A program made the translations under genes and the position numbers. The notes below the pieces were generated by a model that was given only the letters and a program-made list of their open reading frames with translations, did no database searches and was not told the origin of the DNA. This document shows, one piece after another, positions 28,314 through 52,589 of a DNA stretch of 64,000 bases. Within the stretch, counting starts at the first letter, position 1; every line of letters starts with the position of its first letter. Source of the DNA: Spirochaetaceae bacterium (GTDB taxonomy: Bacteria; Spirochaetota; Spirochaetia; DSM-2461); the NCBI GenBank assembly GCA_051531975.1, contig JAOPTT010000002.1:57938-121937 (forward strand), read 5' to 3'.

Positions 28314-28316
28314 ATA

Positions 28317-28345
28317 GTTGGTGCTAGTTATCTGCTAGCACCTAC
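28317..28345. terminator. Hairpin between the convergent export gene and rpn gene
   Basis: GGTGCTAG-7nt-CTAGCACC; no clean U-tract. Confidence 0.5.
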
Positions 28346-28349
28346 AAAA

Positions 28350-29201: not shown

Positions 29202-29265
29202 AAAGCCTCCTATATTGATATATGAATAAACTAAATATAAATTCAGATTATATGCTAATAATTTA

Positions 29266-32595: not shown

Positions 32596-33460
32596 TAAGT
32601 TCTTCCTCTAATGTTTTTAATTCATTTTTAATTTGGCTATGCAGATCTCTTGCATTTTCTACAAAGTCAGATGGTTTTGATTTTGAAGATTTACCCATAC
32701 CTACAATTCTAGATATTGTTATTTTAGCACTACCTAAGGATTTTAATCTGGCTTTTTTATTATCTTTAGGGCCATATTTATACTCTAAAAGTCCTGCTAA
32801 AAACAGAGCTCCATCGTAACCGTGGTTATGGTCTATATCTGGGCCAAAGTTTGGTATATCTTCGTAGAATTCCCTCTCATCAGCTTCAGCTAATACAACT
32901 TCGGTGTAAAAAAACTGGGCTTTTCTGTAAAAGATACCACTTAGGTAATCAAAGTTTTCACCTGGATCATTTAGGTGGTAGTCGTGACATAACCAGGCGG
33001 CTCTTAGGGCACTTAAGCCCTGTCTAAAAAGAGGCTGATGGCTATGTTCCATTTTATCGTAGCACATTATTGCTAATATATAACTTAGGATACCTTCTTG
33101 TATTGTTCTATTTTGGTTAAATTTATACCTTGGAAAGAGGTTTTTTGCTTCACCTTTCCTCTCTGCTTTAGAGTCTGCTAGCTTATGTACTGCCTCTGTG
33201 GATATATTCTCAAAGTCTGATAAATAAGCTGAATATAGGCACTCGGGACAAACTGCTACAGTATATATTAAAGGGTGAACATCTCCATATTTTATGGTTG
33301 GGATATAGAGTCTGTGTAACTCCTCTGTTAAATTCCCGGCATTCATCCGTCCACCACCACTTAGTAGTTCCTCTTTAGCAAAAGAGTGACTACAAACAGG
33401 GCACACTGTATTGTTTTTTGCATAAAAACTGATTTTACCTTTTTTTACTTCATCTGACAC
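32588..33460 (-). CDS. DUF2225 family protein (two CxxC)
   Basis: CPVC...CPEC, LRAAW; conserved spirochaete position between acpS and truA; GTG start. Confidence 0.8.
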   Translation of the reverse strand: MSDEVKKGKISFYAKNNTVCPVCSHSFAKEELLSGGGRMNAGNLTEELHRLYIPTIKYGDVHPLIYTVAVCPECLYSAYLSDFENISTEAVHKLADSKAERKGEAKNLFPRYKFNQNRTIQEGILSYILAIMCYDKMEHSHQPLFRQGLSALRAAWLCHDYHLNDPGENFDYLSGIFYRKAQFFYTEVVLAEADEREFYEDIPNFGPDIDHNHGYDGALFLAGLLEYKYGPKDNKKARLKSLGSAKITISRIVGMGKSSKSKPSDFVENARDLHSQIKNELKTLEEELNA

Positions 33461-33835
33461 TTAGGCCTCCAATATAACTTGGGCTATGGCATACTCTTTT
33501 TCGTGGCTTATAGAAAGGTGTATGCTCCATTTCTCTGCCATTAAGTCTAGTTTATCTTTAACCTTCTGATTAGGTTCTATATGAGGTTTTCCATTAGAAT
33601 CGTTAATAACTGTGATATCTTTAGAGTTAAATCCGTTAAAACCTGTTCCTAGGGCTTTATAAAAGGCCTCTCTTGCAGCAAATCGACCTGCTAAACTCTG
33701 GGCAGCACCAACTCCCCTGCTTTTTACATACTCTATTTCGGAAGTATTAAAAAACTTATCTAAAAAACTTTGGTTATTTATTAACTTTTTAAATCTGGAT
33801 ATTTTTGTTAAATCTATACCTGTACCTAATATCAA
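33461..33835 (-). CDS. acpS: Holo-[acyl-carrier-protein] synthase
   Basis: GTGID, AGRFAAREAFYKALGTG, GKP, SISHE. Confidence 0.96.
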   Translation of the reverse strand: MILGTGIDLTKISRFKKLINNQSFLDKFFNTSEIEYVKSRGVGAAQSLAGRFAAREAFYKALGTGFNGFNSKDITVINDSNGKPHIEPNQKVKDKLDLMAEKWSIHLSISHEKEYAIAQVILEA

Positions 33836-34776
33836 TTAGAGGCTCCTGTTTTCCTTTTAACCACTATAGTTACAATATCTACAGATTTATCGTATACATG
33901 GGCGTATTTAGGAGTCCAATATGTTAATGGAACATCGTAAATCCCTGGGGCTGTTATATCTGATAGGTATAGGGTTAGGGATATATTACTTTTTGTAAAG
34001 TTTTGCAGACTCAGTAATTTACCCTCAACGTTTACACTAACCTGGGGAAGTTCGCTGGTTACTTCTAAACTTGCTGATAACTCTTTAATAGCGATATTTA
34101 CATTTTCTAGAATCTTAATTGAACTTGTCTCTGTTATTATACCCTGAAAATCTACAAATTCACCTTCGGGAAATGATAACCTGGAATCAGACCGGCTTAA
34201 TTTAACTCTAGTGGTAAAATCTGTATCCTTACCTGTAACATCCACGGGCTCTGTCTGTATGGTTTCTAAATCCTGTAAGTGGCTTTTAGGCCCGGTTACA
34301 CTAATAACTTTAGGATGAACAAAACGACTACTAATTTCATAACCATGGGCAGGGATTCCAGTAATAATACTCTCGACCCTTAGATATTTAGTCATTTTTT
34401 GCTCTATTACTGCGGTAATAAATATAGGACTAACTGTAATTTCTACATTTTGTGTCTGACCAAATACTTTTTCTTGTCTTATTAATATAGGTAACTGATA
34501 GGTTCCATCTTCAACAATATCGCTTGCATCTATATACGCTATAATATCGCTTATTGGTACTTTCTGAATCTCAGACTCTTCACCTTTTAATATAAGTGTA
34601 ACCCGCTCTGGTAGTGGATTTGTAAAGGTATAATTATTATTTGTAATAGCTTCTAAAAAGACTACAACAGGTTCCTCTTTTAGAGCATTAGCCCTAGTAA
34701 AAAACACTAATAACATAGCTATTATTAGACAGAGAACCTTAACATGCCAATTATGAAGTATTCTAGTTATTCTCAT
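33832..34776 (-). CDS. cdaR: CdaR/YbbR-domain regulator of diadenylate cyclase
   Basis: HNW..K N-terminal TM, repeated YbbR-like beta domains, directly downstream of cdaA. Confidence 0.85.
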   Translation of the reverse strand: MRITRILHNWHVKVLCLIIAMLLVFFTRANALKEEPVVVFLEAITNNNYTFTNPLPERVTLILKGEESEIQKVPISDIIAYIDASDIVEDGTYQLPILIRQEKVFGQTQNVEITVSPIFITAVIEQKMTKYLRVESIITGIPAHGYEISSRFVHPKVISVTGPKSHLQDLETIQTEPVDVTGKDTDFTTRVKLSRSDSRLSFPEGEFVDFQGIITETSSIKILENVNIAIKELSASLEVTSELPQVSVNVEGKLLSLQNFTKSNISLTLYLSDITAPGIYDVPLTYWTPKYAHVYDKSVDIVTIVVKRKTGASN

Positions 34777-35573
34777 ACTAGTCCTCCATCAACATCGATA
34801 GACCCGGAACTTTGTATCTTATTAATAATAGAGGTAACTTCGTCTACTGGAAGGTTGTAATAGATATTTGAATCGTATGCAATAGATAGTGCTCCAGTCT
34901 CCTCGGAGGCTATTAAAACAATAGAGTCTGATTCTTCTGATAGACCTAAAGCAGCTCTGTGCCTTGTTCCAAAACTCTGTTTTATATCATCCTGTTTAGA
35001 TAGAGGTAAAAAACAACCTGCTGCAATTATTTTATTCCCACCTATAACAATTGCTCCGTCATGTAGTGGGGTATCGTATTCAAATAGGGATATTATTAGG
35101 GACGCTGTAACATCTGCATTAATTGTTGTTCCTGTCTCTATTATGCCTTTTAAATTCATGGATCTTGAAAATACTATTAAAGCACCTCGCCTTCTATCGG
35201 CTAAGATATGGGCTGCAGATACTGCACTTTCTACATTATTAGACGATACCCTAGCTCTTAAATTAAAAAGACCACTAATACCTATTTTATTAAAAATCTT
35301 TCTTAGTTCTGGTTGAAAAACTACAACAATTGCCATCATGATTACCTGGGTTAGGTTTCTCATAACCCATAAAACTGTATCTATTTGAAACATTAATGCA
35401 AATAGAAATAGTAAAAACATAGATAACATACCTTTTACAAGGTGGACTGTTTTTGTCTGTACGAGGATTTTATATACTTGGTATAAAATAAATGTAATTA
35501 TTGCTATGTCTATTAGAGGTCTTAAAACATCTTTGATAAACCAATAGTCAATAATCCAGTTTAAATAATTCAT
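34773..35573 (-). CDS. cdaA: Diadenylate cyclase (membrane-bound CdaA/DacA)
   Basis: 3 TM, FQPELR, LHDGA, GTRHRAA, SEETG. Confidence 0.96.
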   Translation of the reverse strand: MNYLNWIIDYWFIKDVLRPLIDIAIITFILYQVYKILVQTKTVHLVKGMLSMFLLFLFALMFQIDTVLWVMRNLTQVIMMAIVVVFQPELRKIFNKIGISGLFNLRARVSSNNVESAVSAAHILADRRRGALIVFSRSMNLKGIIETGTTINADVTASLIISLFEYDTPLHDGAIVIGGNKIIAAGCFLPLSKQDDIKQSFGTRHRAALGLSEESDSIVLIASEETGALSIAYDSNIYYNLPVDEVTSIINKIQSSGSIDVDGGLV

Positions 35574-36871
35574 TATTCCTCTGTAAGTTCCCCTTTCACT
35601 TTAAAATCATTAGCCCTAACCAGCTTCTTTGCCAGTAATTTAGATAATAATATTGCGTAATGTGGGTACTTTTTAATTGCATTAATATATGAGTTTCTAG
35701 ATATCTTTAGAAGTTTACCTGGGCAGTTTGCATATACAGTTGCACTTCGGTGATTTTGCAGTAAAAATGCCATTTCACCCATAAATACATCCGAGGGTGT
35801 AATTCTTCCAACTAGAACCTCTTCTACATAAACGTCGTAGGTTCCAGCAATAATATAGTATAAAAAGTCACCTATTTCATCTTCCTGGAATACTAGGTCA
35901 CCTTTATTTAGGTTTAGAACCTCTTCGTTACCAAAACCTTCTGGAGTATCTTTATGTATACTAACTTCGTTATCAAAAACTAGTTTTAGTCTATTACCTT
36001 TTTTATTGTACCGGATCTCTTTAGCAATTTTTACAGCCATTTTAATTCCACGGCCATGTAGTGCCATTGAACCTTCAGCTTCTATTCGGGCTTTTAATTT
36101 ATCAACATCAAATCCCTCACCTTCGTCACGGATTACAAAAATGGTCTCGTCATTATTTACAGACCACTCAAAATATACACGTTTTCTTGCTACAGCTGGA
36201 TCTTTACACTTATGGGCAATTAGATCCACAATATTTAGACCTTTTTCTAAGAACTCAGACTTTTCATCGTATGATATTCCACAGTTACCATGTTCTATAC
36301 CGTTTACTATCATCTCTGATAAAACTAGTTGTAGGAACATTTTTCTTTCAGAAGATATTACACCTCTCTGACTTAGTGCTGTAGTTATAATACTTGAATA
36401 TATTGATGCTATAAATACATCGGACTCTATTAAAAATGTACCAGAAGCATTTTCCATTAAGTTATCGATTAGAACTTTTTGGAATATTATATGTCTCTCA
36501 CGGCTAATAATATCAATACTTTTAATTAGATGAGATCTTAATCTTCTCTGGTTCATCATAACCATTATATTAACGTCTGAGTATTTTTTTAATAGTTCCT
36601 CTTCGTTATCTTTGTCATTATAAATTCCGATAATACCAAAACTATGTAACCAGGAGTCCTCCTGAATTTTATGTACAACCGTCTTGATAAGTGCTTCGCT
36701 TGTATCTGAGAAGTTTATAATTATAATCTCAGAGAGTTCATAATCTAGGAAGTCTGAAACACCATCCTTGTTATCTAAGTGTAAAACTTCAAAATTATCG
36801 CTTGTATTAAATAGTTCAGATACGCTTTCTTGTAACTCTATATCACTATTTATAAAACCAACTGCACCCAT
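35573..36871 (-). CDS. Signalling protein: HATPase_c (anti-sigma kinase-like) plus C-terminal cNMP-binding domain
   Basis: EMIVNGIEHGN, IRDEGEGFD, HGRGI; FMGEMAFL...RSATV.A. Confidence 0.82.
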   Translation of the reverse strand: MGAVGFINSDIELQESVSELFNTSDNFEVLHLDNKDGVSDFLDYELSEIIIINFSDTSEALIKTVVHKIQEDSWLHSFGIIGIYNDKDNEEELLKKYSDVNIMVMMNQRRLRSHLIKSIDIISRERHIIFQKVLIDNLMENASGTFLIESDVFIASIYSSIITTALSQRGVISSERKMFLQLVLSEMIVNGIEHGNCGISYDEKSEFLEKGLNIVDLIAHKCKDPAVARKRVYFEWSVNNDETIFVIRDEGEGFDVDKLKARIEAEGSMALHGRGIKMAVKIAKEIRYNKKGNRLKLVFDNEVSIHKDTPEGFGNEEVLNLNKGDLVFQEDEIGDFLYYIIAGTYDVYVEEVLVGRITPSDVFMGEMAFLLQNHRSATVYANCPGKLLKISRNSYINAIKKYPHYAILLSKLLAKKLVRANDFKVKGELTEE

Positions 36872-38790
36872 TATGACCTCTTTGTTTTAATAAATTTTGC
36901 CGATGTAAACTCTTTTGGACTAAGTCTTACCCCACGAGCTTTAACACCTTTAATTAGATAGTTATTAACATCGTAATTATCATCTGCTACCCGTATTAAT
37001 CTTTTTTGTTTAAAATCTACTGTTACAGATATATCCTGTTTAGTAGACATCTTAATAAGTTTACCACCCTCTGGTATTAAGTGGTCGTAATCTTTATCTA
37101 ATATAAACTTCTCTATTTTACACCGTTTTAGATAAACACAGTTCTCAGGACTTTTATATAAAATATTAAAAACTATACTTTCCATGATTTTGGTATCAGC
37201 TAAACCTATATAATGTATTCCTTTGCCTAAAAATAGCTTGTCCTGAACATTAGTCACGTAGTAGTTAGTATCTTTTTTAATAATAACTACTCTATCGTAT
37301 TCAGAAACATCGCAGATAATATCCCCAGTTGTTACACCGGTTCCTAGATATCCACTCTCTTTGTCGTATCTTAGTTTAAGATTTCGAACAGCAGCTTCCC
37401 TTACATCTGTTTTATTAAAAGATATAATTTCTGACTGTCTTTCAAAGTGCTTAGACCGTTTTTCCAGAATACCATCAATAAATCCTATAGCATAGGATAT
37501 AATGTTTTTTAAGTGGAAATTTATCTCTTTTATACGGTCTTTAATCTCTTTCATCTCTTTTTGTACTTTGTTTATATCGTACAAAGATATTCTTCTAATA
37601 GGTATCTTTAATAGTCTCTCTATATCTTCTTCTGTAATCTCTCTTTTTATCTTATCCATAAAGGGAATAAAACCGTTTTGAACAGCTGTAACAACACCGG
37701 CTCTGGTTTTTTGTTCCTCTATAAACTTGTAGATTCTCTCTTCTATAAATATCTGCTCTAGAGTTCTAGCATGTAACCTGTCTTGTAGGTTTCTTTTTTC
37801 ATTTTCAAGTTCTTGTTTTAAGATAGAGACTAACTGTTTAGCGTGGTGCTCAATAACCTGTGTCAGTGTCATAATTACAGGCATACCCTTGTTAATTAAC
37901 AGAAGGTTTACACTAATAGATGATTCACAGTCTGTAAAAGCATATAAAGCGTCTTCTACATCCTTTGAATGAACACCTCTAGGTAGTTTAATCTCGATTT
38001 CTACATTCTCAGTTGTAAAGTCGTTAATAGCTCCAATTTTTATCTTATTCTTTTTAGAAGCGGCCTCAATAGAGTCCATGATACCCTCGGTTGTACAACC
38101 AAAAGGTAACTCTGTTATTATAATTTTTTTAGGGTCAGATACATCTAACTTAGCTCTAACTAAAACCTTACCAAGTCCGTCTTCGTAGTTTGTTACATCT
38201 ACAAAACCACCTGTAGGGAAGTCTGGGAAAAGCTGAAATGGTTCCCCTTCTAGACATTTTTTCTCCGCTTCTAATACCTCTATTAAGTTATGAGGAAGTA
38301 TTTTTGTAGACATTCCTACGGCAATACCCTCAACACCCTGAATAATAGCTAGTGGAATTTTACATGGGAAGGTTACTGGTTCTCTTTTTCTACCGTCGTA
38401 ACTATCTTCGTATGTTGTTAACTCCGGGTTGTAAAAGATCTCTTTTGCAAAAGGCTGAAGTCTACACTCAATATATCTTGCTGCAGATGCTGGGTCTCCA
38501 GTAAATATATTACCAAAGTTTCCCTGTTTATCTATAAGTAGCTCTTTATTTGCTAGGTATACTAAAGCTCCACCAATAGATGCGTCTCCATGTGGGTGAT
38601 ACTGCATAGTGTGACCAATAATATTGGCTACTTTATGGAACTTTCCATCATCTTTTTCTATTAAAGAGTGGATAATTCTCCGTTGTACCGGTTTTAAACC
38701 ATCTTCTAAGTGGGGTATGGCTCTATCTTTTACAACATAGGATGCATACTCTATATAATTCTTTTCGAATACTTTTTGTACATATGCCAT
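36871..38790 (-). CDS. parC: DNA topoisomerase IV subunit A (short spirochaete type)
   Basis: DGLKPVQRR, HPHGD, AARY catalytic Tyr, GIAVGM. Confidence 0.92.
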   Translation of the reverse strand: MAYVQKVFEKNYIEYASYVVKDRAIPHLEDGLKPVQRRIIHSLIEKDDGKFHKVANIIGHTMQYHPHGDASIGGALVYLANKELLIDKQGNFGNIFTGDPASAARYIECRLQPFAKEIFYNPELTTYEDSYDGRKREPVTFPCKIPLAIIQGVEGIAVGMSTKILPHNLIEVLEAEKKCLEGEPFQLFPDFPTGGFVDVTNYEDGLGKVLVRAKLDVSDPKKIIITELPFGCTTEGIMDSIEAASKKNKIKIGAINDFTTENVEIEIKLPRGVHSKDVEDALYAFTDCESSISVNLLLINKGMPVIMTLTQVIEHHAKQLVSILKQELENEKRNLQDRLHARTLEQIFIEERIYKFIEEQKTRAGVVTAVQNGFIPFMDKIKREITEEDIERLLKIPIRRISLYDINKVQKEMKEIKDRIKEINFHLKNIISYAIGFIDGILEKRSKHFERQSEIISFNKTDVREAAVRNLKLRYDKESGYLGTGVTTGDIICDVSEYDRVVIIKKDTNYYVTNVQDKLFLGKGIHYIGLADTKIMESIVFNILYKSPENCVYLKRCKIEKFILDKDYDHLIPEGGKLIKMSTKQDISVTVDFKQKRLIRVADDNYDVNNYLIKGVKARGVRLSPKEFTSAKFIKTKRS

Positions 38791-40595
38791 TAGATTAGGT
38801 TCTCCATAATATAGTCTCTACGTTGTGGTGTATTTTTACCCATATAAAACTCTAGGGTTTCTGGTATAGATTTTAAGGATTTAACCAATACTGGTACTAA
38901 TTTTATATCATCTCCAATAAATTGACCAAACTCTTTAGGGGATATCTCTCCAAGTCCCTTAAAACGGGTAACTTCTGGGCTTGATATCTTTTTAAGTGCG
39001 ACATCCCGTTCTTTCTCGGAATAACAGTAGCTAGTAACTTTTTTATTTCGAACCCTAAATAGTGGGGTTTCTAATATAAAGATCTTCTCAGCTACTACTA
39101 GTTCCTCAAAATAGGATAAAAAGAAGGTTAATAGTAGGTTTCTAATGTGGAAACCATCGTAGTCCGCATCGGTTGCTATAATTATTTTACTATAACGTAG
39201 ATTATCAATATCGTTCTCTATTCCTAGAGCCATCATCATATTAAATAGCTCTTCGTTTTTATATATTGCTGCTCGGCCCTTACCAAATAGGTTTTGGGGT
39301 TTACCTTTCAGACTAAAAATTGCCTGTTTATATACGTCTCTACAAGAAACCATAGAACCAGATGCTGACTGACCCTCTGTAATAAAGATCATGGTGCCTT
39401 CACCCTTCTCTCCATCTTGCAGATGATTTTTACAATCCTTTAACTTTGGTATTTTAATAGATATCTTTTTAGCTGCGGCCTTTGCCTCTTTTTTAACAGC
39501 GTTTAACTCTTTTCTTAGTTTCTCGTTATTTAATATTTTTTCTAATAAAGCATCAGCCGCTGGTGTATTTTTATGTAAAAAGTCAACAATTCCTGACTTT
39601 ACTTCACCAACAATCCAGGCTCTAATATCTGAGTTTCCTAGTTTATTTTTTGTTTGACTCTCAAATACTGGGTCTTTTACTTTAACTGCTACAGCCCCTG
39701 CAATACCGTCTCGAATATCTACACCGGAGAATGCTTTTTTATAAAAGTCATTAACACCTTTTAAAAGTCCTTCTCTAAAAGCACTTAAGTGGCTTCCTCC
39801 GTCTGAGGTAAATTGACCATTTACAAAACTAAAATATGTCTCTCCATAGTTATGTGTATGGGTAAAAGCAAACTCTATTTTATTCCCAGTACAATAACCA
39901 ATTTCGTATAGAGTATCGTCTCCAACTTCTGAGTGCAGAAGATCTTCTAGACCATGTTTTGATTCAAATTTTTGTTTATTAAAATATAACCGCAGTCCTT
40001 TATTTAGGCAGGCGTAGTTCCAGGCTCTCTGTTCTATATATTCAAAGGTATATTCCCAATCTCCAAATATTTCTGTATCTGGTAAGAATTCGAAGTATGT
40101 TCCATTTTTCTCGTCTGGGGCACTTCCCTTCTTCTCTGAGATTAAAACTCCACGGCTAAATATTGCTTCTGCGTATTTCCCTTCTCGGTAAGATCTAACT
40201 AAAAAGTGCTGAGATAGAGCATTTACAGCTTTTGTACCAACACCGTTTAATCCAACTGAGTATTGGAATACATCACTGTCGTATTTTGCACCTGTATTAA
40301 TAATAGAAACACAGTCAATTATTTTACCTAAAGGTATTCCACGACCGTAGTCACGGCATATTACAAACCCTTTTTCATCTATATCAAAATTAATTCTGGA
40401 ACCGTGTCCCATTATAAATTCATCTATTGAGTTATCTATAATTTCTTTTAGTAGTATGTAAATACCATCGTTTTGGTTAGATCCGTCTCCTAACCTACCA
40501 ATATACATACCAGAACGTAGTCTAATATGCTCTAAAGGACTAAGAGTTTGAATTTTACTCTCGTCGTAAACGTGTTTGTTTGAGTTTTCTGCCAT
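38790..40595 (-). CDS. parE: DNA topoisomerase IV subunit B
   Basis: EIIDNSIDE, DYGRGIP, GLNGVG, TEGQSA, TDADYDG.HI, RFKGLGE. Confidence 0.93.
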   Translation of the reverse strand: MAENSNKHVYDESKIQTLSPLEHIRLRSGMYIGRLGDGSNQNDGIYILLKEIIDNSIDEFIMGHGSRINFDIDEKGFVICRDYGRGIPLGKIIDCVSIINTGAKYDSDVFQYSVGLNGVGTKAVNALSQHFLVRSYREGKYAEAIFSRGVLISEKKGSAPDEKNGTYFEFLPDTEIFGDWEYTFEYIEQRAWNYACLNKGLRLYFNKQKFESKHGLEDLLHSEVGDDTLYEIGYCTGNKIEFAFTHTHNYGETYFSFVNGQFTSDGGSHLSAFREGLLKGVNDFYKKAFSGVDIRDGIAGAVAVKVKDPVFESQTKNKLGNSDIRAWIVGEVKSGIVDFLHKNTPAADALLEKILNNEKLRKELNAVKKEAKAAAKKISIKIPKLKDCKNHLQDGEKGEGTMIFITEGQSASGSMVSCRDVYKQAIFSLKGKPQNLFGKGRAAIYKNEELFNMMMALGIENDIDNLRYSKIIIATDADYDGFHIRNLLLTFFLSYFEELVVAEKIFILETPLFRVRNKKVTSYCYSEKERDVALKKISSPEVTRFKGLGEISPKEFGQFIGDDIKLVPVLVKSLKSIPETLEFYMGKNTPQRRDYIMENLI

Positions 40596-40602
40596 ATTAA
40601 AA

Positions 40603-40631
40603 ATAATACAGATAGAAACCTATTTTGTACA
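40603..40631 (-). promoter_or_regulatory. Putative parE promoter (leaderless arrangement)
   Basis: TGTACA(40631-26)-17-TATTAT(40608-03)-7nt-ATG; no SD. Confidence 0.45.
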
Positions 40632-40634
40632 GTA

Positions 40635-41825
40635 CTAATTCGAGAGTAAAGTTGTTGTTATTAGCTCTATGTCCTCTGGTTTAAGTAGTGTATGCAGTGG
40701 TAATGTCACCTGATTCTGGTATTGGTTATATGCATTAGGGTAATTTTTGATGTCAAAACCCATTTTTTTATAACATGTTAACATTGGCAGAGGTTTATAA
40801 TGAACATTAAGTGGTATTCCCTTAGACGCCATTAAAGTTATTAAGTTATTTCTTTTTTCCTCTGTAAAACTTTCAATTCTTAACTGAAATAGATGACAGG
40901 AACTTTTTGTTTCTTTGTCTTGATATATAGGTAAAATAAATCTTGTATCCTGTTTTAACCTATCTATATAGTCCTGAAACATAACTTCCCGTTGGTTTTT
41001 AAGTTCAGCTCTATATCTTTTTAACTGTACTAAACCTAAGGATGCTGTAATGTCTGTCATATTACATTTATACCCAGGAAATAGGATGTCATACTCCCAC
41101 CCACCTAGTTTTGTTTTTTCAAGGGCATCTCTACTTTGACCATGCAGACTTAAAGTTCTTAACTCTTTATATATAGTTTGGCTTCCTAACCCTAGTTCTT
41201 TAAAAGTTACGGCTCCACCTTCTGCTGTTGTTACATTTTTTACAGCGTGAAAACTAAAAGATGTAAAATCAGCTACATTCCCAATTGGTATACCTTTATA
41301 ATAGGCTCCAATAGAGTGAGCAGAATCACTTAAAACTAAGATTCGTCCAAGTTTCTCCTGGTAAGTTCCTGGTTTAGGGATAAATTTATTTGTATTTGAA
41401 ACAATTTTAAATATCTGGTCATAATTACAGGGATAACCTGCAACATCAACTGGTATTATAGCCTTTGTTTTATCTGTTATTTTTAATTTTATCTGTTCTG
41501 GGTCTATTAAAAATGAGCCTGGTATAACATCGGCGAAGATTATTGTTGCCCCGGTATGCACTATTACAGCAGCTGTGGCACTATATGTATAGGGTGTTGT
41601 AATTACCTCATCCCCAGGTCCAATTTCAAAAAGTCGTAATACCATTTCCATACCTGCAGTTGCACTATTTAGACATACAGCCCCGGCGGACTCAGTATAA
41701 TTTTTAACTTCTTCTTCTAAAGCTTTAGTTTTTGGCCCTGTTGTTATCCAGCCTGATTTTAAGGTATCAACTACCTCGTTTATCTCTTCCTGGGTTATAT
41801 CTGGTGGTGAAAAACTTATTGACAA
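40635..41825 (-). CDS. DegT/DnrJ sugar aminotransferase (PglE/SpsC-like)
   Basis: FSPPDI, SGWITTGP, DSAHS.GA, SFHAVKN.TTAEGG, GYKCNMTD. Confidence 0.9.
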   Translation of the reverse strand: MSISFSPPDITQEEINEVVDTLKSGWITTGPKTKALEEEVKNYTESAGAVCLNSATAGMEMVLRLFEIGPGDEVITTPYTYSATAAVIVHTGATIIFADVIPGSFLIDPEQIKLKITDKTKAIIPVDVAGYPCNYDQIFKIVSNTNKFIPKPGTYQEKLGRILVLSDSAHSIGAYYKGIPIGNVADFTSFSFHAVKNVTTAEGGAVTFKELGLGSQTIYKELRTLSLHGQSRDALEKTKLGGWEYDILFPGYKCNMTDITASLGLVQLKRYRAELKNQREVMFQDYIDRLKQDTRFILPIYQDKETKSSCHLFQLRIESFTEEKRNNLITLMASKGIPLNVHYKPLPMLTCYKKMGFDIKNYPNAYNQYQNQVTLPLHTLLKPEDIELITTTLLSN

Positions 41826-43243
41826 ATTGACTCCTGGTATTCCTTAACCCATTTTTTTAGTTCTAATTTTATTTTATCGTTATTATATGTCTGGGTAATT
41901 TCACCTAGATCAAGCAGTAGTTTTTTGATCTGTTCAGGGGTTAAATTATCCTGTTTCTGATGAGAAACTAATAGTCTATCGTAACCTGTTTCTACTATCT
42001 CTTCACTTTTAGTTAATAACTCTTCGTATAGTTTCTCCCCGGCTCTTAAACCTGTGAATTCTATACCAATATCTTTTAGGGTATAACCTGATAAACTGAT
42101 CATCTGTTCTGCTAAATCTGTTATTTTAATAGGATCACCCATCTCTAAAATAAATAGATCTCCAATTTCTAGTACCCCTGCTTTTAAAACCAACCTTGCA
42201 GCTTCTGGTATAGACATAAAGTATCTGGTTATATCTGGATGGGTTACAGTTAGTGGTCCACCTTTTGTTATCTGTTTTTTAAATAGTGGAACTACACTTC
42301 CTTTAGAACCTAAAACATTTCCAAATCTTGTAAATGATAGTTTACAGCTATCCTGATGGTTATTTAATGAGTGGATTAATATTTCCCCAATCCTTTTTGT
42401 TGTTCCCATAACCGATGTTGGATTAACGGCTTTATCTGTAGATACTAAATTAAACCTTTTAACTCCACTCTCTATAGAGGCTTTTGCACAGTTATATGTT
42501 CCAAAGATGTTGTTTTTTACAGCTTCATCTGGGTAGTTCTCCATTAATGGCACGTGTTTATGTGCTGCTGCATGGAAAACCCTATCAGGTCTATGTTTTT
42601 TAAACTCGTGTAATAACTTGGTATAGTCTTTTACATCCCCAATTATGTAGTCAAATCTGCTATCGCTGCCAAACTTACCTATTAATTCATAAACTGAGTT
42701 CTCACCATGGCCTAGAGCTATAACTTTTTTTATAGGAAGAAGAAGTAACTGATTGATAATTTCTGATCCAATTGAACCACCACCACCTGTTACTAATATG
42801 GTCTGATCAAGATACTCTTTTATTAACTCCTGTTCGTTAAAACCTATCTCTTCCCGGCCTAACAGGTCTGTTATTTCAATGTCTCTTATCTGATTTATAT
42901 TAAAATGCCCATTTATTATATCGTATACACCTGGGACTATTTTTATGATTACATTTGAACTGTCTAGAGAACGTAATATTTTTTCTATTACACCTCTTTT
43001 TGCAGATGGAATTGCAATAATTACTTCTTGAATATTGTAACTTTTAATTACTGTACTTACATTTTCAATATCGGATAAGATAGGGATATCTAATATATAA
43101 GGATTACTATTATTATCGGTGTTAGAACTGTCATCGATAAATCCAGTTACATGATATCGCCTATTTAGGGTTTCGTTATCTTTTATCTCTTTTAATACGG
43201 TTTGTCCCGCATTTCCAGCACCAATTATTAGTATATTTATCAT
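41816..43243 (-). CDS. UDP-GlcNAc 4,6-dehydratase (PglF/CapD/WbpM-like) lacking the N-terminal TM domain
   Basis: GAGNAG, DLLGR, TGGGGSIGSE, HAAAHKHVP, STDKAVNP.SVMG.TK, RFGNVLGS.GSV. Confidence 0.9.
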   Translation of the reverse strand: MINILIIGAGNAGQTVLKEIKDNETLNRRYHVTGFIDDSSNTDNNSNPYILDIPILSDIENVSTVIKSYNIQEVIIAIPSAKRGVIEKILRSLDSSNVIIKIVPGVYDIINGHFNINQIRDIEITDLLGREEIGFNEQELIKEYLDQTILVTGGGGSIGSEIINQLLLLPIKKVIALGHGENSVYELIGKFGSDSRFDYIIGDVKDYTKLLHEFKKHRPDRVFHAAAHKHVPLMENYPDEAVKNNIFGTYNCAKASIESGVKRFNLVSTDKAVNPTSVMGTTKRIGEILIHSLNNHQDSCKLSFTRFGNVLGSKGSVVPLFKKQITKGGPLTVTHPDITRYFMSIPEAARLVLKAGVLEIGDLFILEMGDPIKITDLAEQMISLSGYTLKDIGIEFTGLRAGEKLYEELLTKSEEIVETGYDRLLVSHQKQDNLTPEQIKKLLLDLGEITQTYNNDKIKLELKKWVKEYQESICQ

Positions 43244-43269
43244 ATGTTACATATAATACTCTTATAAAT

Positions 43270-43309
43270 AAAAAAGACCAAGTAAAACAGTATTACTTGG
43301 TCTTTTTTT
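43270..43309. terminator. Rho-independent terminator downstream of ackA (bidirectional form)
   Basis: AAAAAAGACCAAGTAA-loop-TTACTTGGTCTTTTTT. Confidence 0.88.
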
Positions 43310-43322
43310 AGAGTGTTATATA

Positions 43323-44660
43323 TTACTTTGCAGTAACAATTACTTCTTTTAACTCTGGCTTCTTAATTAGCTGTTTTTTAAGTGCTTCAGCTCTAGATTT
43401 ATTTACATAATCCGCTTTCTGGAAAGAGTACTCAAAGTTAGTATGAACATCATAAGTTCCATTTAACAATGCAACAGTATCCTCTGTCATAACCAGCTCT
43501 TCATCTGTAGGTATTACAAATACTTTAGTTGGTGAGTCATCTGTAGAAATTATAGTTTCAGCTCTTTGAGTTTTAGATATTGCATTTCTCTTCTCATCAA
43601 GTTTAATACCCATAAAGTCTAAACCTTGTAGTGCAATCTTTCTAACTGAAGGTCCCATTTCACCAACACCAGCAGTAAATACAATAGCATCTGCTCCACC
43701 AATTGCTGCACAGAATGAACCAATATATTTTTTGATTCTATAACTTTCTAAGTTTTGACCTAAAATACAGTCTGCATCACCTTCAGCAACACCTTTTTCA
43801 ACATCTCGTCTATCAATATACTTTTCTGTTATACCTAAAAGACCAGATTTTTTATTTAATACATTATCGATCTCGTTAACTGTCATTCCAGTACGGTCTA
43901 TCATGTATTTAATAAGTGCAGGGTCTAAAGTACCACTTCTAGTTCCCATTACTAAACCATCTAATGGAGTTAAACCCATTGTAGTATCAAAACAAACACC
44001 GTTTTTAACAGCACACATACTTGCACCATTACCAATATGAGCAATAACTAAGTTAACATCTTTAGGATCTTTACCTAAAAGCGCTGCTGCTCTTTTTGTT
44101 GTATATAAAAAGCTAGTTCCGTGGAAACCATACTTTCTTACTTTATGTTCAGTATACCAAGATTTTGGAACAGCATATCTAAATGCTTCTTCTGGCATAG
44201 ATTGGTGCCAAGCTGTATCCATTACTGCAACATTTGTTACGCCTGGTAAAACACCCATAACAGCTTTAATACCCATTAAGTGACCTGGATTATGTAGTGG
44301 TGCTAAAGGAATATTTGATTCAATATCTTTTAATACATCATCTGTAACTATTACAGATTTTGTGAAAGTTTCTCCACCATGTACAATTCTATGACCAATT
44401 GCTTTAATATCCGTACGGTTCTCGATACAACCAAACTCTTTATCTGTAATAATTTTTAAAATAAATTCTACAGCTTCTTTATGAGTTGGAAAGTATTCTT
44501 TAGCATCGTAAACTTCTTTACCTTTCGATTCATTCTCGATATGTGAAATCTCTTCACCGATTCTCTCAACTATACCTACACATATAGCTTCCTTCTGATC
44601 CCAGTCATATACCTGGTACTTTGCAGAAGAGCTTCCGCAGTTTAGTGTTAATATAATCAT
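43323..44660 (-). CDS. ackA: Acetate kinase
   Basis: NCGSSSAK, GHRIVHGG, APLHNP, YGFHGTS, HIGNGAS, PTDEE. Confidence 0.97.
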   Translation of the reverse strand: MIILTLNCGSSSAKYQVYDWDQKEAICVGIVERIGEEISHIENESKGKEVYDAKEYFPTHKEAVEFILKIITDKEFGCIENRTDIKAIGHRIVHGGETFTKSVIVTDDVLKDIESNIPLAPLHNPGHLMGIKAVMGVLPGVTNVAVMDTAWHQSMPEEAFRYAVPKSWYTEHKVRKYGFHGTSFLYTTKRAAALLGKDPKDVNLVIAHIGNGASMCAVKNGVCFDTTMGLTPLDGLVMGTRSGTLDPALIKYMIDRTGMTVNEIDNVLNKKSGLLGITEKYIDRRDVEKGVAEGDADCILGQNLESYRIKKYIGSFCAAIGGADAIVFTAGVGEMGPSVRKIALQGLDFMGIKLDEKRNAISKTQRAETIISTDDSPTKVFVIPTDEELVMTEDTVALLNGTYDVHTNFEYSFQKADYVNKSRAEALKKQLIKKPELKEVIVTAK

Positions 44661-46803: not shown

Positions 46804-46875
46804 GGCGCTGTACCCAAGTGGTAAGGGAGTAGTCTGCAAAACTATCATTCACCGGTTCGAATCCGGTCGGCGCCT
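46804..46875 (+). tRNA. tRNA-Cys(GCA), CCA not encoded
   Basis: Acceptor GGCGCTG/CGGCGCC, anticodon arm GTAGT-CTGCAAA-ACTAT, T arm ACCGG-TTCGAAT-CCGGT, U73. Confidence 0.97.
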
Positions 46876-46938: not shown

Positions 46939-47187
46939 ATGAAACGGTACGGATTTATTGGTATAACAATTAACAAAGATGTTACTAGTGGAGTTGAAGT
47001 TCAAACGGTATTAAGTGAAGAACCAGACATTATTATGGGCAGAATGGGTATTCCCAATTTAGAAGACGGTTCTATCTCTGTTATTACCTTAATTGTTAAT
47101 GCTACAACTGATCAGGTAGGCGCTTTAACTGGAAAGTTAGGTAAACTTGAAGGTGTTAACGTAAAATCTGGACTTTGCAAGATATAA
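46939..47187 (+). CDS. TM1266-family ACT-like protein ([FeFe]-hydrogenase system putative regulator)
   Basis: I.GRMGIP, ISVITLIV, GALTGKLGKL.GV.VKS; GGAG SD. Confidence 0.85.
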   Translation: MKRYGFIGITINKDVTSGVEVQTVLSEEPDIIMGRMGIPNLEDGSISVITLIVNATTDQVGALTGKLGKLEGVNVKSGLCKI

Positions 47188-47250: not shown

Positions 47251-47967
47251 TTGAACCAGGAAAATTTTGAAGGTAACGAGAGACAACTTAAACTATTACT
47301 AAAGTCAATTAGAGAAAATGACATTCCAACATGGAATAACTTTGTTAAAACAAGTGGGAAATACTTTGTCGCAAACCTTAATGGTATAAATCTAAGTTTC
47401 TTAGACCTTAAAGAGATAAACCTAAGTGGATCTAAACTTATAGGTGCAAATCTAGAAGGTTGTGACCTAACTAGAGCTAATTTATCTAGAACAAAAATGA
47501 TGGAAGCTAACCTTACTGGAACAAACCTAACAAAAGCAATTATTACTAACTCATATTTAAAAGACTCAAACCTTGAAGGTTGTATTGCAACTGGAGCAAG
47601 TTTTAAAGATACTGACTTAACTAGTGTTAACCTGGACGGTGCTAATTTAGAAGATGCAAACATTGTTGGTACTGTTTTTAAACTAACGTCTCTTAAAAAG
47701 ACAAACATGAAAGGTGTAATAAAATCCAAAACAACTAAGATTGTACCTAAACCTAAATCTAGAGAGTTAACATCTGAGGATAAAAAGAAACTATCACCTT
47801 GGAAAATTGCTAAGCAAGAAGAGACAATGCGTCGTGTAACTAGGGTAAAATCTGAACACAACAATAAAAGTGATATATTAAAAGAAAATCTTAGAGCTAA
47901 AGATAGGTTAAATAGAAATGTTTTTACTAACGAGAAAGAAATTACTGAAGTAGAGTCTGAGAAATAA
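47251..47967 (+). CDS. Pentapeptide-repeat protein with a basic C-terminal tail
   Basis: About 20 A(N/D)Lxx-type pentapeptides preceded by 'WNNF'; TTG start after AAGGGAAGGG; upstream TTGCTT-17-TATTAT. Confidence 0.9.
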   Translation: MNQENFEGNERQLKLLLKSIRENDIPTWNNFVKTSGKYFVANLNGINLSFLDLKEINLSGSKLIGANLEGCDLTRANLSRTKMMEANLTGTNLTKAIITNSYLKDSNLEGCIATGASFKDTDLTSVNLDGANLEDANIVGTVFKLTSLKKTNMKGVIKSKTTKIVPKPKSRELTSEDKKKLSPWKIAKQEETMRRVTRVKSEHNNKSDILKENLRAKDRLNRNVFTNEKEITEVESEK

Positions 47968-48059
47968 TTAAGTTTTAATTATGTACTGATACATATTTTT
48001 AAATAAAATTATGTATTAATGAGAAAGAAATTACTGAAGTAGAGTCTGAGAAATAATTA
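47932..48059 (+). repeat. Two exact 39-bp direct repeats (47932-47970, 48021-48059)
   Basis: GAGAAAGAAATTACTGAAGTAGAGTCTGAGAAATAATTA occurs twice, 50 bp apart; the first copy is the gene's 3' end. Confidence 0.95.
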
Positions 48060-48130
48060 GGTATTAGTAGATTATTTTGTAATACTATTGATTTTAATTA
48101 TTAACTGAAAAATAATTTGAATATATAAAT

Positions 48131-48162
48131 AAAAAAATCCGGTTTTGAACCGGATATTTTTT
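48131..48162. terminator. Rho-independent terminator of the histone gene (probably bidirectional)
   Basis: A-run + ATCCGGTT-TTG-AACCGGAT + T-run, directly after the minus-strand stop. Confidence 0.85.
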
Positions 48163-48346
48163 AAATGTCTCTTTCTTGAACAGTTTTTCGTTTGTCACTT
48201 TTAGCATCTTCGATAGCTTTATCCAAAATGTCTCTTATTTTATCTGATAACGCGTCGATAACCTTTGCAGAACATTTAAGGTCACCTTTTTCTTTAATGT
48301 AATTTTTTACTTTTGATGCAACAACCAATGCCTCATTTTCAGCCAT
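48161..48346 (-). CDS. Bacterial histone-fold protein (Bd0055/HBb-like singlet)
   Basis: LVVASKVK.YIK (alpha1), S..VIDALS..I..IL..AIE.AK (alpha2), RKTV..RD (L2/alpha3 R-D clamp); AAGGAG SD 6 nt upstream. Confidence 0.9.
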   Translation of the reverse strand: MAENEALVVASKVKNYIKEKGDLKCSAKVIDALSDKIRDILDKAIEDAKSDKRKTVQERDI

Positions 48347-48371
48347 TTAATTCTCCTTGCTTAATATAAAA

Positions 48372-48401
48372 ACAATACCACAACTATTGCTAAGTTGTAC
48401 A
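48372..48401 (-). promoter_or_regulatory. Putative histone-gene promoter
   Basis: TGTACA(48401-396)-18-TATTGT(48377-72) with an extended -10 TG. Confidence 0.5.
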
Positions 48402-48467: not shown

Positions 48468-49670
48468 ATGAAACGAAACTTTTTATTGATATTTATTATT
48501 TTAATTTCCACTTTAACTTTCTCTAAAGAAAAAAAAGTTAATCCAGATAATGCAATAATATATTTGGCTACAATCGGCCCTGGAGACGAACTATTTTTAA
48601 GATGGGGACATTTTGCAATTATAGTTGATTATGAAAACAGAAAAGACATACTTTTTGATTATGGAAACTTCTCCTTTGCTAAAGATGACTTTTTAACCCA
48701 ATTTATTCGAGGTATAATGATATATTCTAAGAATAGAAAGGATGCTGATAATGAAATAGGTTGGTATGTTCATGATAACAGATCAGTAACATTACAAGAG
48801 TTAAACTTAACCCCGGAACAGGTAGATATCAGTATAAGAAAACTATATATTGATGTCAGAGAAGAAAACAAATATTATCAGTATGATCATTATTATAATA
48901 ATTGTGTTAGCCAAATGAGCGACTTTTTAGATTACCTTACAGATGGTGCGTTTTACAAAGATACCGAGGTTTTAACAGATAGAAGTTTTAGAGATCTTTC
49001 TAGAGATTATGTAAATAGTAACTACCTAAATAATATTTTTATTACGTTTCTACTTGGTTCTAAAGTAGAACACAATATTACAGAAAAAGAGGGCATGTTT
49101 TTACCTGATTATACTAAAAATCGCGCAAATAATGTCTTAATACCTGATGGAAATGGTGGTCTAAAACCTCTGATTAAAGAGGAAATATTAATATATAAAA
49201 GTGAAGATAGAGACCCTGTGATAGTTAACTCAAAACCAAGAATAATTGAATCAATAATAATAGGACTGTTATTAACTGGGATTACATTTGTACTTAGCCG
49301 ATATAAACTTGTTTACTCAATTTCAAACACTGTTGTAGGTCTATTTGGTGGAATAACCGGATCTATACTGTTTTTTATGGCATTTTTTACTGGCCACTAT
49401 TACATACATAATAACTGGAATCTAATCCTAGTAAACCCGCTAACTTTTATGTTATTTATAGGTGGAATTTTAAGATTAACTAAAAAATTAAAATCAACTG
49501 GAGACAAAATAATAAAGTTATATATTAATGGTAGTTTGTTTCTTATTATTGGAATGTTAATATTTAAAGCTTTAGGGTTAATCAAACAGGATAACGGTGA
49601 GATTATTGCCCTAATAGCTCCAATATTTTTAGTTAGTTATTTAATTAGGAAGAGAAGTAAGGTTATCTAA
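48468..49670 (+). CDS. lnb: DUF4105/Lnb-like lipoprotein N-acyltransferase
   Basis: T.GPG.E....GH.AI, FDYG.F.F, Y.YD....NC, FLP, five C-terminal TM helices with N.N....NP. Confidence 0.75.
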   Translation: MKRNFLLIFIILISTLTFSKEKKVNPDNAIIYLATIGPGDELFLRWGHFAIIVDYENRKDILFDYGNFSFAKDDFLTQFIRGIMIYSKNRKDADNEIGWYVHDNRSVTLQELNLTPEQVDISIRKLYIDVREENKYYQYDHYYNNCVSQMSDFLDYLTDGAFYKDTEVLTDRSFRDLSRDYVNSNYLNNIFITFLLGSKVEHNITEKEGMFLPDYTKNRANNVLIPDGNGGLKPLIKEEILIYKSEDRDPVIVNSKPRIIESIIIGLLLTGITFVLSRYKLVYSISNTVVGLFGGITGSILFFMAFFTGHYYIHNNWNLILVNPLTFMLFIGGILRLTKKLKSTGDKIIKLYINGSLFLIIGMLIFKALGLIKQDNGEIIALIAPIFLVSYLIRKRSKVI

Positions 49671-52589
49671 TAGACCTTCTAATTTTTCTCCAGCCTTTTT
49701 AAGTTCATCTTCAGATGAGAGTATAACTGTTGAGACTTCATCAAAATGGTGAAGAACTACAGCTGCAAAGTCCATTAACTTCTGGGGCGTTACTGCCATT
49801 AAATATGCTCTTTTATCTTTTCTAACTCTGTCTGTTATACCTAAAAGTATACGCCTAACTCCAATTATAGATTTCTCTACAGGGGTTAAAGGTTTTAGCT
49901 CTTTACCTATTACACTAATCAGTGCTAAATCAATCTGATTCTGGGTTATATGCCCTGCAGCAATCCACTCTAAACTCTGTTTAAAATGCTCTATTGTTTC
50001 TACGATATTAGGGTCTCGGTATGATCCAAAAGTGATAGAACCATCTAGGCCAGATGGAGATGCAAATACACCATACGCTCCACCTTTCATTCTAACGTTT
50101 TCCCAAAGATATCCTGTTTTTAAGATGTAACATAATATAGCACTTGAGCAATATTCTTCGCTTCCTAAATAAGCAGCTTTAACCGTAACTCCAGTATAAG
50201 AAACTTTACTATTTCCAACTAAACCTTCGATATCAGTATCTAAATCATAATGTTCTACAGGGTGTATAAAACCATGCCCATCAGGAAGAGAATCTATTAC
50301 TTCTTTAAAAGAATTCTCTAATACATCTCTATATTTATCATCTGTAGAACTATGGAAAAATAGACCTTGTTTAGTTAACAGTTCTTTTTTAATAGAGTCT
50401 AATATAACTGCAACTTCTTTTAGCTTTTCTTCATCTTCAAAACTATTAACTAAATCATCTAGAAAAATAGCTGCAGTTACACCGTACCAACTCTCTTCAC
50501 GGCATGAAGACAGTGAGTATTTTCTTGCGGATCGTAGACCAGCATAGGATGAGCCATTAGCTACAAGGGAAGTTTTTAAATCGTTTCGTAGTTCTGTAAT
50601 CACACTTTTTAGACGTTTATAGTCGTGGAAATCAACCTTCGATAAAAAGTCTACGATTATTTTAAAAGCATCAGGAATAAGGTGTTCTAAAACCTTACCT
50701 CTTATATAAAGAAACTCGTTATAACTGTCTGGGTTACCATCTTTTAATGTATTAGAGGTCTCCATTGAGGCCCCTAAACCACCAAGATTTAGAGAAACTA
50801 ATTTTGATACCTCATCGTATGATGCATCAGTAAAACCAGCCCCAGTAAACATTCTAGTAAAAATTAACATATAGTCAAAAAAGTATTTATCTAGATACTC
50901 CATATTAAAACCTAAACCAAAATAGACTACGCCATTAGTATATAAGTCAGTTTTATAATAGTCGAAACCATGTAAATCGACCTTTTTTGTATCTATTTCA
51001 GTAATCTCAGATGGAATATCATCACGGGTTAACCTAGGAAGAGAGTTTAATGCCTCTTTTGAGTCTGGTTTGCTCTGGTATACTTCTAATGAACTATTTT
51101 GATTTTTAATCTGGTTTATTTTATCTGAATTAAAGCTATCCTTTAGATTTTTTAATTCTAAATCTAGTTCTGCCTTTTCCCGTGTAGTCTCTTCTGAACT
51201 TGGTTCAATAACAATATCTGCACGGTGTTGGTTATCTAACAAATACTTCTGAATTAAATTTTCAAAATAGTTAGGCTCCCCAGATTTTTTACGTATTAAA
51301 GTCATCCATTTCTCAAACTCAAGAGTTTTTAATACATGCTGCCCACGTAACCAACCTCGAATAACCTTACGCATTAATCTAAGACCTAATGAACTTTGTA
51401 TTTCTCGGTTTCTAAATTCAATGCCTCTAAGAGCACCTTCTATTAGATCTTTATTAAGACCATCTTTTACGACCTTAGTTAACGTATCAAATACTACAGA
51501 TCTAAACTTATCTATATCCTTAGCTGATGCTCCTCGAACTCCAACTGTATATATAAAATTTTCAAGTTCATTTTCTAATCCGGAAGCGTTTGATAAGTCA
51601 TCCCAGGATTTGTTATCAACTAAAGCTTTATGTAATGGAGCGGCACTGCTTCCAATAAGTATTCTATTTAATATCTCAAGGGCTAAAGCCTCTTCTGGAG
51701 AACTTGTATCAAATAGTTTCCAACTAATAAGTAGATCAGAACCTCTATTATCCTCTTCTAAGGCTGGTGTAAATCGGTGAAAGCTTTGGGGTTTAACCCA
51801 AACTTCTTCCTCTTTAGGAATTGTAATAGCTGTAGCTTCAGGAAATTCTGTTAAAAACTTATTATCTAAAAACTCTAATGTCTTATCCGTAGGAATATCA
51901 CCATAGAGATAAACGTAACAGTTTGAAGGTGTATACCATTTTTTATGAAAGTCTAAAAACTCATCATATGTTAGTGTTGGTATTGTCTTAGGATCACCTC
52001 CTGAATCATGGGTATAAGTTCCATGAGTATAAAGTGATTTGACAGACATCTCTTGAACAATCGAGTCGTGGGAGCTATAGACTCCCTTCATTTCATTATA
52101 TACAACACCGGAGTAATAGAGATTCCCTTCCTCGTTTATACATGTTCTAAAACCCTCTTGTAAAAAAGTCTCTTTTGTTAACTTTGGGAAAAAAACAGCA
52201 TCTGCATATACTGACATAAGATTAAAAAAATCTTTTTCTAATACTGATGATGCAGGATATGCTGTTTTATCAGGAAATGTAAAAGCATTTAAAAATGTAT
52301 TAACACTACCAGTCATCATAGCCTGAAAAGGATCTTTTAAGTCATAAAGCCTAGACCCACTTAAAACTGAGTGCTCTATTATATGTGGAATTCCATTACT
52401 GCTAGTTATAGGAGTATTAAAAGAAAATGAGAAAGTATTTTCTGGATCATTATTATGTATATGAAAAAGTCTTAATCCTGTTTTTAGATGAAGATACTCA
52501 TAACCATTACTCTGATATTCATTTAAATCTGAAATTTCTATTAATTTAAAACCATTATTAATGGTACCGATTTTTTTGTTATTTTTCAA
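49641..52589 (-). CDS. M16C (insulinase/PreP-like) zinc metallopeptidase
   Basis: HIIEHSVL.GS, FLNAFTFPDKT.YP, GVVYNEMKG, R.KGGAYG, SYRDP; TTG start. Confidence 0.95.
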   Translation of the reverse strand: MKNNKKIGTINNGFKLIEISDLNEYQSNGYEYLHLKTGLRLFHIHNNDPENTFSFSFNTPITSSNGIPHIIEHSVLSGSRLYDLKDPFQAMMTGSVNTFLNAFTFPDKTAYPASSVLEKDFFNLMSVYADAVFFPKLTKETFLQEGFRTCINEEGNLYYSGVVYNEMKGVYSSHDSIVQEMSVKSLYTHGTYTHDSGGDPKTIPTLTYDEFLDFHKKWYTPSNCYVYLYGDIPTDKTLEFLDNKFLTEFPEATAITIPKEEEVWVKPQSFHRFTPALEEDNRGSDLLISWKLFDTSSPEEALALEILNRILIGSSAAPLHKALVDNKSWDDLSNASGLENELENFIYTVGVRGASAKDIDKFRSVVFDTLTKVVKDGLNKDLIEGALRGIEFRNREIQSSLGLRLMRKVIRGWLRGQHVLKTLEFEKWMTLIRKKSGEPNYFENLIQKYLLDNQHRADIVIEPSSEETTREKAELDLELKNLKDSFNSDKINQIKNQNSSLEVYQSKPDSKEALNSLPRLTRDDIPSEITEIDTKKVDLHGFDYYKTDLYTNGVVYFGLGFNMEYLDKYFFDYMLIFTRMFTGAGFTDASYDEVSKLVSLNLGGLGASMETSNTLKDGNPDSYNEFLYIRGKVLEHLIPDAFKIIVDFLSKVDFHDYKRLKSVITELRNDLKTSLVANGSSYAGLRSARKYSLSSCREESWYGVTAAIFLDDLVNSFEDEEKLKEVAVILDSIKKELLTKQGLFFHSSTDDKYRDVLENSFKEVIDSLPDGHGFIHPVEHYDLDTDIEGLVGNSKVSYTGVTVKAAYLGSEEYCSSAILCYILKTGYLWENVRMKGGAYGVFASPSGLDGSITFGSYRDPNIVETIEHFKQSLEWIAAGHITQNQIDLALISVIGKELKPLTPVEKSIIGVRRILLGITDRVRKDKRAYLMAVTPQKLMDFAAVVLHHFDEVSTVILSSEDELKKAGEKLEGLLDNLTSLPN

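Follow-up and report, generated by a model that had tools for sequence, protein, structure and literature searches.

A stand-alone gene for a predicted HBb-type histone in a free-living spirochaete family

The stretch of DNA analysed here (64,000 nucleotides, hereafter the window) belongs to a Spirochaetaceae genome of 5.46 Mb and ~31% G+C. Its minus strand carries a small gene, given in the ORF list as 61 codons plus TAA, whose product we assign to the histone fold (Table 1). The reading frame stands exactly as it was written in a preliminary description of this DNA. Directly 5' of the ATG is an in-frame TAA, so that the open frame amounts to 61 residues and no N-terminal tail is possible on the protein. 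The AAGGAG Shine-Dalgarno (SD) sequence was also found at the claimed distance from the start codon. Each of the 11 related loci listed has AAGGAG or TAGGAG ahead of this ATG, and the SD, the ATG and a hairpin with a T-run after the stop codon are conserved together in these 11. The terminator that had been ascribed to the gene is indeed present: its stem contains four G-C pairs, starts five bases past the histone stop and has a folding energy (MFE) of −12.7 kcal/mol, and a terminator scan of the region returned two sites against 0.2 expected.

Table 1. Features at and around the histone gene, in positions of the window
Feature	Position	Strand	Basis or remark
Histone CDS	48161..48346	−	ORF list, PF00808, phmmer, AF2 helices, Foldseek
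Cys25 codon	48272-48274		within loop L1
Shine-Dalgarno AAGGAG	48358-48353	−	sequence; 6-nt spacer to histone ATG
Candidate TGn-extended −10, TGGTATTGT	48380-48372	−	sequence; inferred
Candidate −35-like TGTACA	48401-48396	−	18 nt upstream of the −10 hexamer; A/T tract precedes
Intrinsic terminator	48130..48155	−	8-bp stem, 3-nt loop, T-run; terminator-like on both strands
Terminator stem	48155-48137		
Lnb-like membrane-protein gene	48468-49670	+	PF13387 and PF25221
PreP-type M16C peptidase gene	49641-52589	−	
Pentapeptide-repeat gene	47251..47967		
62-nt direct repeat	47916-47977 / 48005-48066		87% identical, perfect 39-nt core
TM1266-like gene	46939-47187	+	PF21699
tRNA gene	46804-46875	+	Rfam 64.5 bits

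Upstream of the gene, a candidate extended −10 promoter had been pointed out. The element itself is there, and a TGn-extended −10-like element is clear in 8 of the 11 related loci listed (the exceptions being L006, L007 and L013); however, a sigma-70 consensus scan called no minus-strand promoter upstream of the histone gene. Read by eye, TGnTATTGT is kept in three loci of the same genus and TGnTAGAAT in five loci of another genus; L008-L012 are among the clear cases. The TGTACA that accompanies it is weak by itself because only four of its six positions match TTGACA, and it is conserved across the three same-genus loci. We regard the combination of the TGn −10 and TGTACA as a reasonable but unproven call for the promoter of this gene.

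The histone gene lies between a convergent pentapeptide-repeat gene and a divergent gene for an Lnb-like membrane protein, and is therefore monocistronic, in agreement with what had been proposed. Next after the Lnb-like gene comes a gene for a PreP-type M16C peptidase. Of 91 related loci, 40 retain the Lnb-like gene, 25 a PreP-like gene and 19 the pentapeptide gene, and a functional link between the histone and its Lnb-like or PreP neighbours is not evident. The spacer before the histone terminator holds the second copy of a direct repeat, which repeats the end of the pentapeptide-repeat gene, namely its final codons and stop. Past the latter gene is a tRNA gene; a gene for a TM1266-like, ACT-type 'iron-only hydrogenase system regulator' is also found in this region, and its synteny is limited to the closest relatives (5 of 91 loci). 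At the scale of the window, positions 1-28000 form a long run of minus-strand genes with a G+C content of 0.25-0.31, and the content is 0.34-0.35 over positions 28001-44000.

Three types of comparison place the protein in the histone family. First, it matches the Pfam family PF00808 (CBFD_NFYB_HMF) with 23.7 bits (cut-off 21.4), and the scan of the genome gave 23.6 bits. The PF09123 family (DUF1931, pseudodimeric histones) was considered and rejected, as the score of 17.4 bits is under the cut-off of 21.8 and the chain consists of one 61-residue fold. Second, a phmmer search of all PDB sequences aligned residues 5-61 with the 8fvx/8cmp chains of HBb, also known as Bd0055, at an E-value of 2.2e-12. 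This Bdellovibrio bacteriovorus protein (PDB 8FVX, 8CMP, 9EZZ, 9F0E) is the prototype of the α3-truncated 'bacterial dimer' histones. The same search returned HLp (9qt0, E 2.2e-9) of Leptospira perolatii (PDB 9QT0-9QT2), which together with the L. interrogans histone represents the bacterial face-to-face (FtF) histones, and HTkC (9f2c, E 4.6e-5), an archaeal FtF histone from Thermococcus kodakarensis (PDB 9F2C). Third, an AF2 model built from 59 diverse homologues (pLDDT 83.4) was compared with the PDB by Foldseek. The best five matches were all HBb (TM 0.85-0.90, rmsd 0.8-1.2 Å), with HLp next at 0.83-0.84 and HTkC at 0.80-0.82, and these three proteins make up the top nine. The remaining matches listed, namely eukaryotic and archaeal histones, NF-Y/CCAAT-binding proteins and MHF complexes, are all of the histone fold. 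The comparison with solved histone structures that had been suggested as a check thus came out in favour of the histone assignment. An earlier AF2 model from 26 close homologues (pLDDT 66) served for secondary structure only and not for the fold search.

In the AF2 models, helix α1 covers about residues 2-21 (with a length of ~12-19 residues across models), loop L1 about 21-26, including K24-C25-S26, and α2 about 27-51, which corresponds to 24-25 residues. Loop L2 carries R53-K-T-V and is followed by an α3 of one turn at most (helix at 56-59 in the first model), before the chain ends with D60-I61. The architecture is α3-truncated, the chain stopping one residue past D60; this bears out the previous observation that the protein terminates after RDI and is missing the α3 extension. 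The RD clamp, or RKTxxxD motif, is present as R53-K-T-V-Q-E-R-D60, and all 26 homologues have R53, K54, T55 and D60. The claim of a histone fold with an R-D clamp is therefore upheld by Pfam, phmmer and Foldseek as well as by the R53-D60 pair. Also present are the S-K motif and the lysines of α1, with K12 and K14 found in 26, and S11 and K18 in 24, of the 26 homologues. In all, 17 columns are invariant in the alignment of these close homologues. The protein is weakly basic (pI 7.8; 14 K+R vs 13 D+E; net charge +1).

The window histone and HBb share 54-56% identity (49.9 bits by phmmer), compared with 42% (40.5 bits) for HLp. Parallels with both HBb and the Leptospira histones had been noted; the former holds, at 56% identity, while the latter is clearly less close. 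Judged by sequence and by model, the gene encodes a real histone, and a close relative of HBb.

The nearest named relatives, as had been anticipated, are spirochaetes outside Leptospira. The closest is the Thiospirochaeta perfilievii copy (90% identity), annotated "hypothetical protein"; homologues follow in Oceanispirochaeta sp. (77%, "histone-like protein"; 75-77% in Oceanispirochaeta MAGs) and Entomospira nematocerorum (71%, "NFYB/HAP3 family transcription factor subunit"), and further close ones in several Spirochaetaceae MAGs. These relatives place the host in Thiospirochaeta or close to it, and not in Leptospira. The name 'histone H3/H4' is also in public use for such homologues. The remark that an ORF of this size is easily missed or left as hypothetical is thus only partly correct: the gene is usually called in public records, but some copies do go under 'hypothetical protein'.

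The distribution across spirochaetes, another of the checks proposed, was surveyed with the window histone as query. Every one of the 24 genomes sampled from the same family has a match, as do 2 of 16 genomes taken from 16 other families of the same class. In a phylum-wide sample, 93 of 401 genomes match, the window's own genome counted. The Leptospira-like family (f34) accounts for 72 of these matches, out of its 75 genomes, with 43-50% identity to the window histone, and another 20 are spread over eight small families, with no match in big families of the sample (0/50, 0/38 and 0/17 genomes). Twenty of the matches were read: all six from f34 display the HLp-like signature ...R-T-x-x-N-K-R-x-T-V, and all 14 from ten other families display the dimer-type signature. 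A scan of named genomes gave 460 loci that encode a histone relative. Among the best 80 of these, 72 bear spirochaete names, five are from Myxococcota and one is labelled "Deltaproteobacteria"; the spirochaete names include Oceanispirochaeta, Sediminispirochaeta, Breznakiellaceae, "Treponema sp." MAGs and an Olavius algarvensis endosymbiont.

In a quick tree of 110 rows and 56 columns, in which most forks are unresolved and from which loci L086 and L087 were left out, the window histone groups with its genus within a spirochaete clade of 86 rows (support 89). The seven rows from Myxococcota and other non-spirochaetes make up a clade of their own (support 98), and f34 sits on a long separate branch (support 99). 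Taken together, the tree, the distribution and the kept neighbours indicate long vertical inheritance of the histone gene in this spirochaete group, not recent transfer.

Two side observations were made on these relatives. The Leptospira-type (FtF) clade is sister to a dimer-type sequence of another family (f56, row L109) with support 88, and this pairing stands among Spirochaetota rows of the dimer type, in a group with weak support. It is a hint that the FtF and dimer types may be related within the phylum, in an alignment with too few columns for a conclusion. In addition, 37 of the best 150 representatives from a library of 1.84 billion proteins match the window histone with two stretches; the HBb-type fold occurs as a tandem doublet in, for example, P0073 (133 aa) and P0074 (126 aa), and P0079 bears an additional Cys/His-rich N-terminus. 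Bacterial histone doublets are mentioned in general by Hocher et al. 2023, and in the main text of Schwab et al. 2024 the words 'doublet' and 'tandem' appear in the reference list only. The 86-aa relative P0083 is 75% identical up to residue 55 and has unrelated sequence after it, which is probably due to a frameshift or an assembly error in the record.

The DNA contacts of HBb are reported to be N22, R57, S9, T53, T8, S24, K10, K12, K52 and K16, with R51-D58 as the clamp (Hu et al. 2024, PMC11317129). In the phmmer alignment, eight of the ten are identical in the window histone (S11, K12, K14, K18, S26, K54, T55 and R59) and two are changed (T8 to A10, N22 to K24). The residues that are invariant in the 26 close homologues include K12, K14 and S26, besides R53, K54, T55 and D60 of the clamp motif. 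Since N22, the top DNA-contact residue of HBb, is a lysine here and the adjacent threonine is a cysteine, details of the contact made by L1 may be different.

By homology with HBb, two chains would pair as a head-to-tail 'handshake' dimer, and the dimer would contact the DNA backbone without sequence preference through its paired L1-L2 loops (K24, S26, K54, T55 and R59). The N-terminal end of α1 would add the contacts of S11, K12, K14 and K18, and the R53-D60 clamp would keep L2 in place. The DNA would be bent, as with HBb, and not wrapped. Such HBb-like bending would in turn imply the role of a nucleoid-associated protein working next to HU and YbaB. We consider it probable that the window histone is of this kind, i.e. 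a tail-less, α3-truncated 'bacterial dimer' histone that forms handshake dimers and bends DNA alongside HU and YbaB.

It should be noted that the binding mode of HBb is itself disputed. Bending by a dimer has been reported on the basis of TPM, ligase circularisation, crystal structures and MD (Hu et al. 2024, PMC11317129), whereas in vitro Bd0055 has been reported to bind end-on and to coat straight DNA as a filament (Hocher et al. 2023). The window histone might likewise belong to the same family and yet act in the second way, its dimers binding end-on and coating straight DNA as a nucleohistone filament. The mode was described for the closest solved homologue, and the residues common to the window histone and HBb suit either one. 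Nevertheless, bending is what Hu et al. 2024 report for the very same protein, and we give the end-on filament a minor, though appreciable, chance.

A further alternative is that the protein, although of the histone fold, does not act on the nucleoid as a whole, but is a regulator of low abundance or the partner of some other protein. Histone-fold proteins need not all organise genomes (Schwab et al. 2024), the charge of the window histone is near neutral, and HU and YbaB are encoded too. The codon usage is also unremarkable. Thus, with ten ribosomal proteins plus EF-Tu as the reference set, the histone gene has a CAI of 0.623, i.e. the 67th percentile of 3991 ORFs (genome median 0.599), a value that 42% of random 61-codon fragments reach and that falls in the noise range at this length. 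The HU gene has a CAI (0.61) like that of the histone gene, and CAI therefore has little power in this genome. As for the 6-mer SD, it precedes ~11% of the long ORFs. These data lend no support to the earlier phrase that the unit is 'built for high expression'. On the other hand, the residues with which HBb contacts DNA do not vary in the family, the gene is conserved as a unit of its own and has no conserved operon partner, and HBb coexists with HU and yet is the most abundant nucleoid protein of its host (Hocher et al. 2023). We regard this alternative as unlikely.

The genome encodes one histone, one HU and one YbaB/EbfC; a second weak histone match (C6, E 0.26) has an internal stop and was rejected. 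As both HU and YbaB/EbfC are encoded, the main nucleoid protein may be one other than the histone. This organism may have histone-based chromatin, as the preliminary description proposed.

Given that the host shares its phylum with Leptospira, and that HLp is matched at 42% identity and at the TM-scores given above, one could also envisage an FtF tetramer like HLp that wraps about 60 bp of DNA. The HLp tetramer is held by R49, S52, N53 and R55, of which R49, N53 and R55 are conserved across bacterial FtF histones predicted to be tetrameric (Hu et al. 2025, PMC12701072). Bacterial dimer histones, as described by Schwab et al. 2024, are without the FtF R/N pair (R48/N52 of the FtF logo), have an α3 cut to 3-4 residues and an α2 shorter than that of nucleosomal histones. 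In the HMMER alignment, R49 and N53 of HLp fall on D47 and D51 of the window histone. Neither R47 nor N51 occurs in any of the 26 close homologues, all of which have D51, with N, S, K or D at position 47. The R/N pair is found in 0 of the 104 non-f34 rows of the 110-row set, whereas the six f34 sequences sampled, read directly, all keep R...N and constitute the separate clade mentioned above. Moreover, HBb is nearer than HLp by every score. The sequence determinants, that is, HBb-like contacts without the R/N pair, therefore put the window histone in the HBb 'bacterial dimer' category, which was originally defined via sequence clustering and in which placement here means the best PDB match by sequence and fold. 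Although the choice between dimer and tetramer had been held to be undecidable by eye, the sequence is clearly closer to the HBb type than to the Leptospira tetramer type, and an FtF tetramer appears very improbable.

Finally, the notion of a chance ORF, in favour of which there is just the small size (61 codons at ~31% G+C), is ruled out for all practical purposes by the 72 homologous clusters at E<=1e-12, the 460 genomic loci, the conserved start codon, SD and terminator, and the confident fold model.

One difference between the window histone and HBb concerns loop L1, which reads K24-C25-S26 in the former and N22-T23-S24 in the latter. In the 110-row set, the triplet is K-C-S in 76 rows, N-C-S in eight and L-C-S in two, and the Cys-bearing rows are exactly those of the 86-row spirochaete clade. 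Threonine occupies this position in HBb, in the six Leptospira-type rows and in the Myxococcota relatives; in other Spirochaetota families it is found in 10 of 11 rows, the eleventh having serine. Cys25 is thus a clade marker between two DNA-contact positions. Because the residues on both sides of it correspond to DNA contacts of HBb, Cys25 could tie DNA binding to thiol chemistry. These spirochaetes live in sulfidic habitats. A redox-tuned histone, whose DNA binding would respond via Cys25 to thiol oxidation, sulfide or persulfide chemistry, is a speculation from sequence that we consider quite improbable, and Cys25 may be a neutral or structural substitution.

Comparison with known systems helps to define what kind of histone this is. 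In common with HBb, it has the length class, the tail-less chain, the S-K motif, the α1 lysines, RKTV, the RD clamp, the one-turn α3 and an HU in the same organism. The hosts differ, since Bdellovibrio is a predator and the host of the window histone is a free-living spirochaete. With the HLp type the window histone has in common the phylum, the α3-truncated fold, the RD clamp and a single-copy gene, but it is without the N-terminal tail and the tetramer residues and belongs to a separate clade. The SMC/MAP neighbourhood of the Leptospira gene is absent at this locus. Leptospira has been reported to be without HU and Dps (Hu et al. 2025, PMC12701072), unlike the window genome, where HU is present. 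HTkC has the same α3-truncated fold but differs in being archaeal, tetrameric and only 32% identical. Archaeal nucleosomal histones (HMfB type; HPhA 1KU5 and Asgard HHoB 9QV5 among others) share with the window histone the histone fold and the R-T...D loop motif, with TM 0.59-0.68 to the window model. They are distinguished by a longer α2, a full α3 and hypernucleosome stacking (Schwab et al. 2024).

Bacterial dimer histones had already been placed in the class Spirochaetia of the Spirochaetota (Schwab et al. 2024), and the DNA-binding residues of HBb had been reported as conserved in Spirochaetota relatives (Hu et al. 2024, PMC11317129). Thus, both this kind of protein and its presence in the class are already in print. 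In the searchable supplementary files of Schwab et al. 2024, none of five genus, species and class names looked for occurs. A 2025 preprint on spirochaete genomics states that Leptospira are the sole spirochaetes with histones (PMC12236494); this statement is contradicted by the genome counts given above, by the present locus and by the survey of Schwab et al. 2024. In the literature searched, we found no experiments on a dimer histone from a spirochaete.

Against this background, three points are mildly new. First, the histone is universal in one family, as judged from its 24 sampled genomes. Second, the two types are split cleanly by family, with tetramer-type histones in the Leptospira-like family and dimer-type ones in 11 or more other families. 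Third, the L1 loop has a fixed cysteine throughout the 86-row clade. The locus also adds a well-supported case in which an HBb-type histone is a fixed, vertically kept gene in a free-living spirochaete family. Thiospirochaeta perfilievii P and Oceanispirochaeta crateria K2 are taken to be cultured isolates. Closed genomes are available for both (PMC7380536). If the isolates are indeed in culture, work on a dimer-type histone would be possible in a free-living bacterium where HU is present as well.
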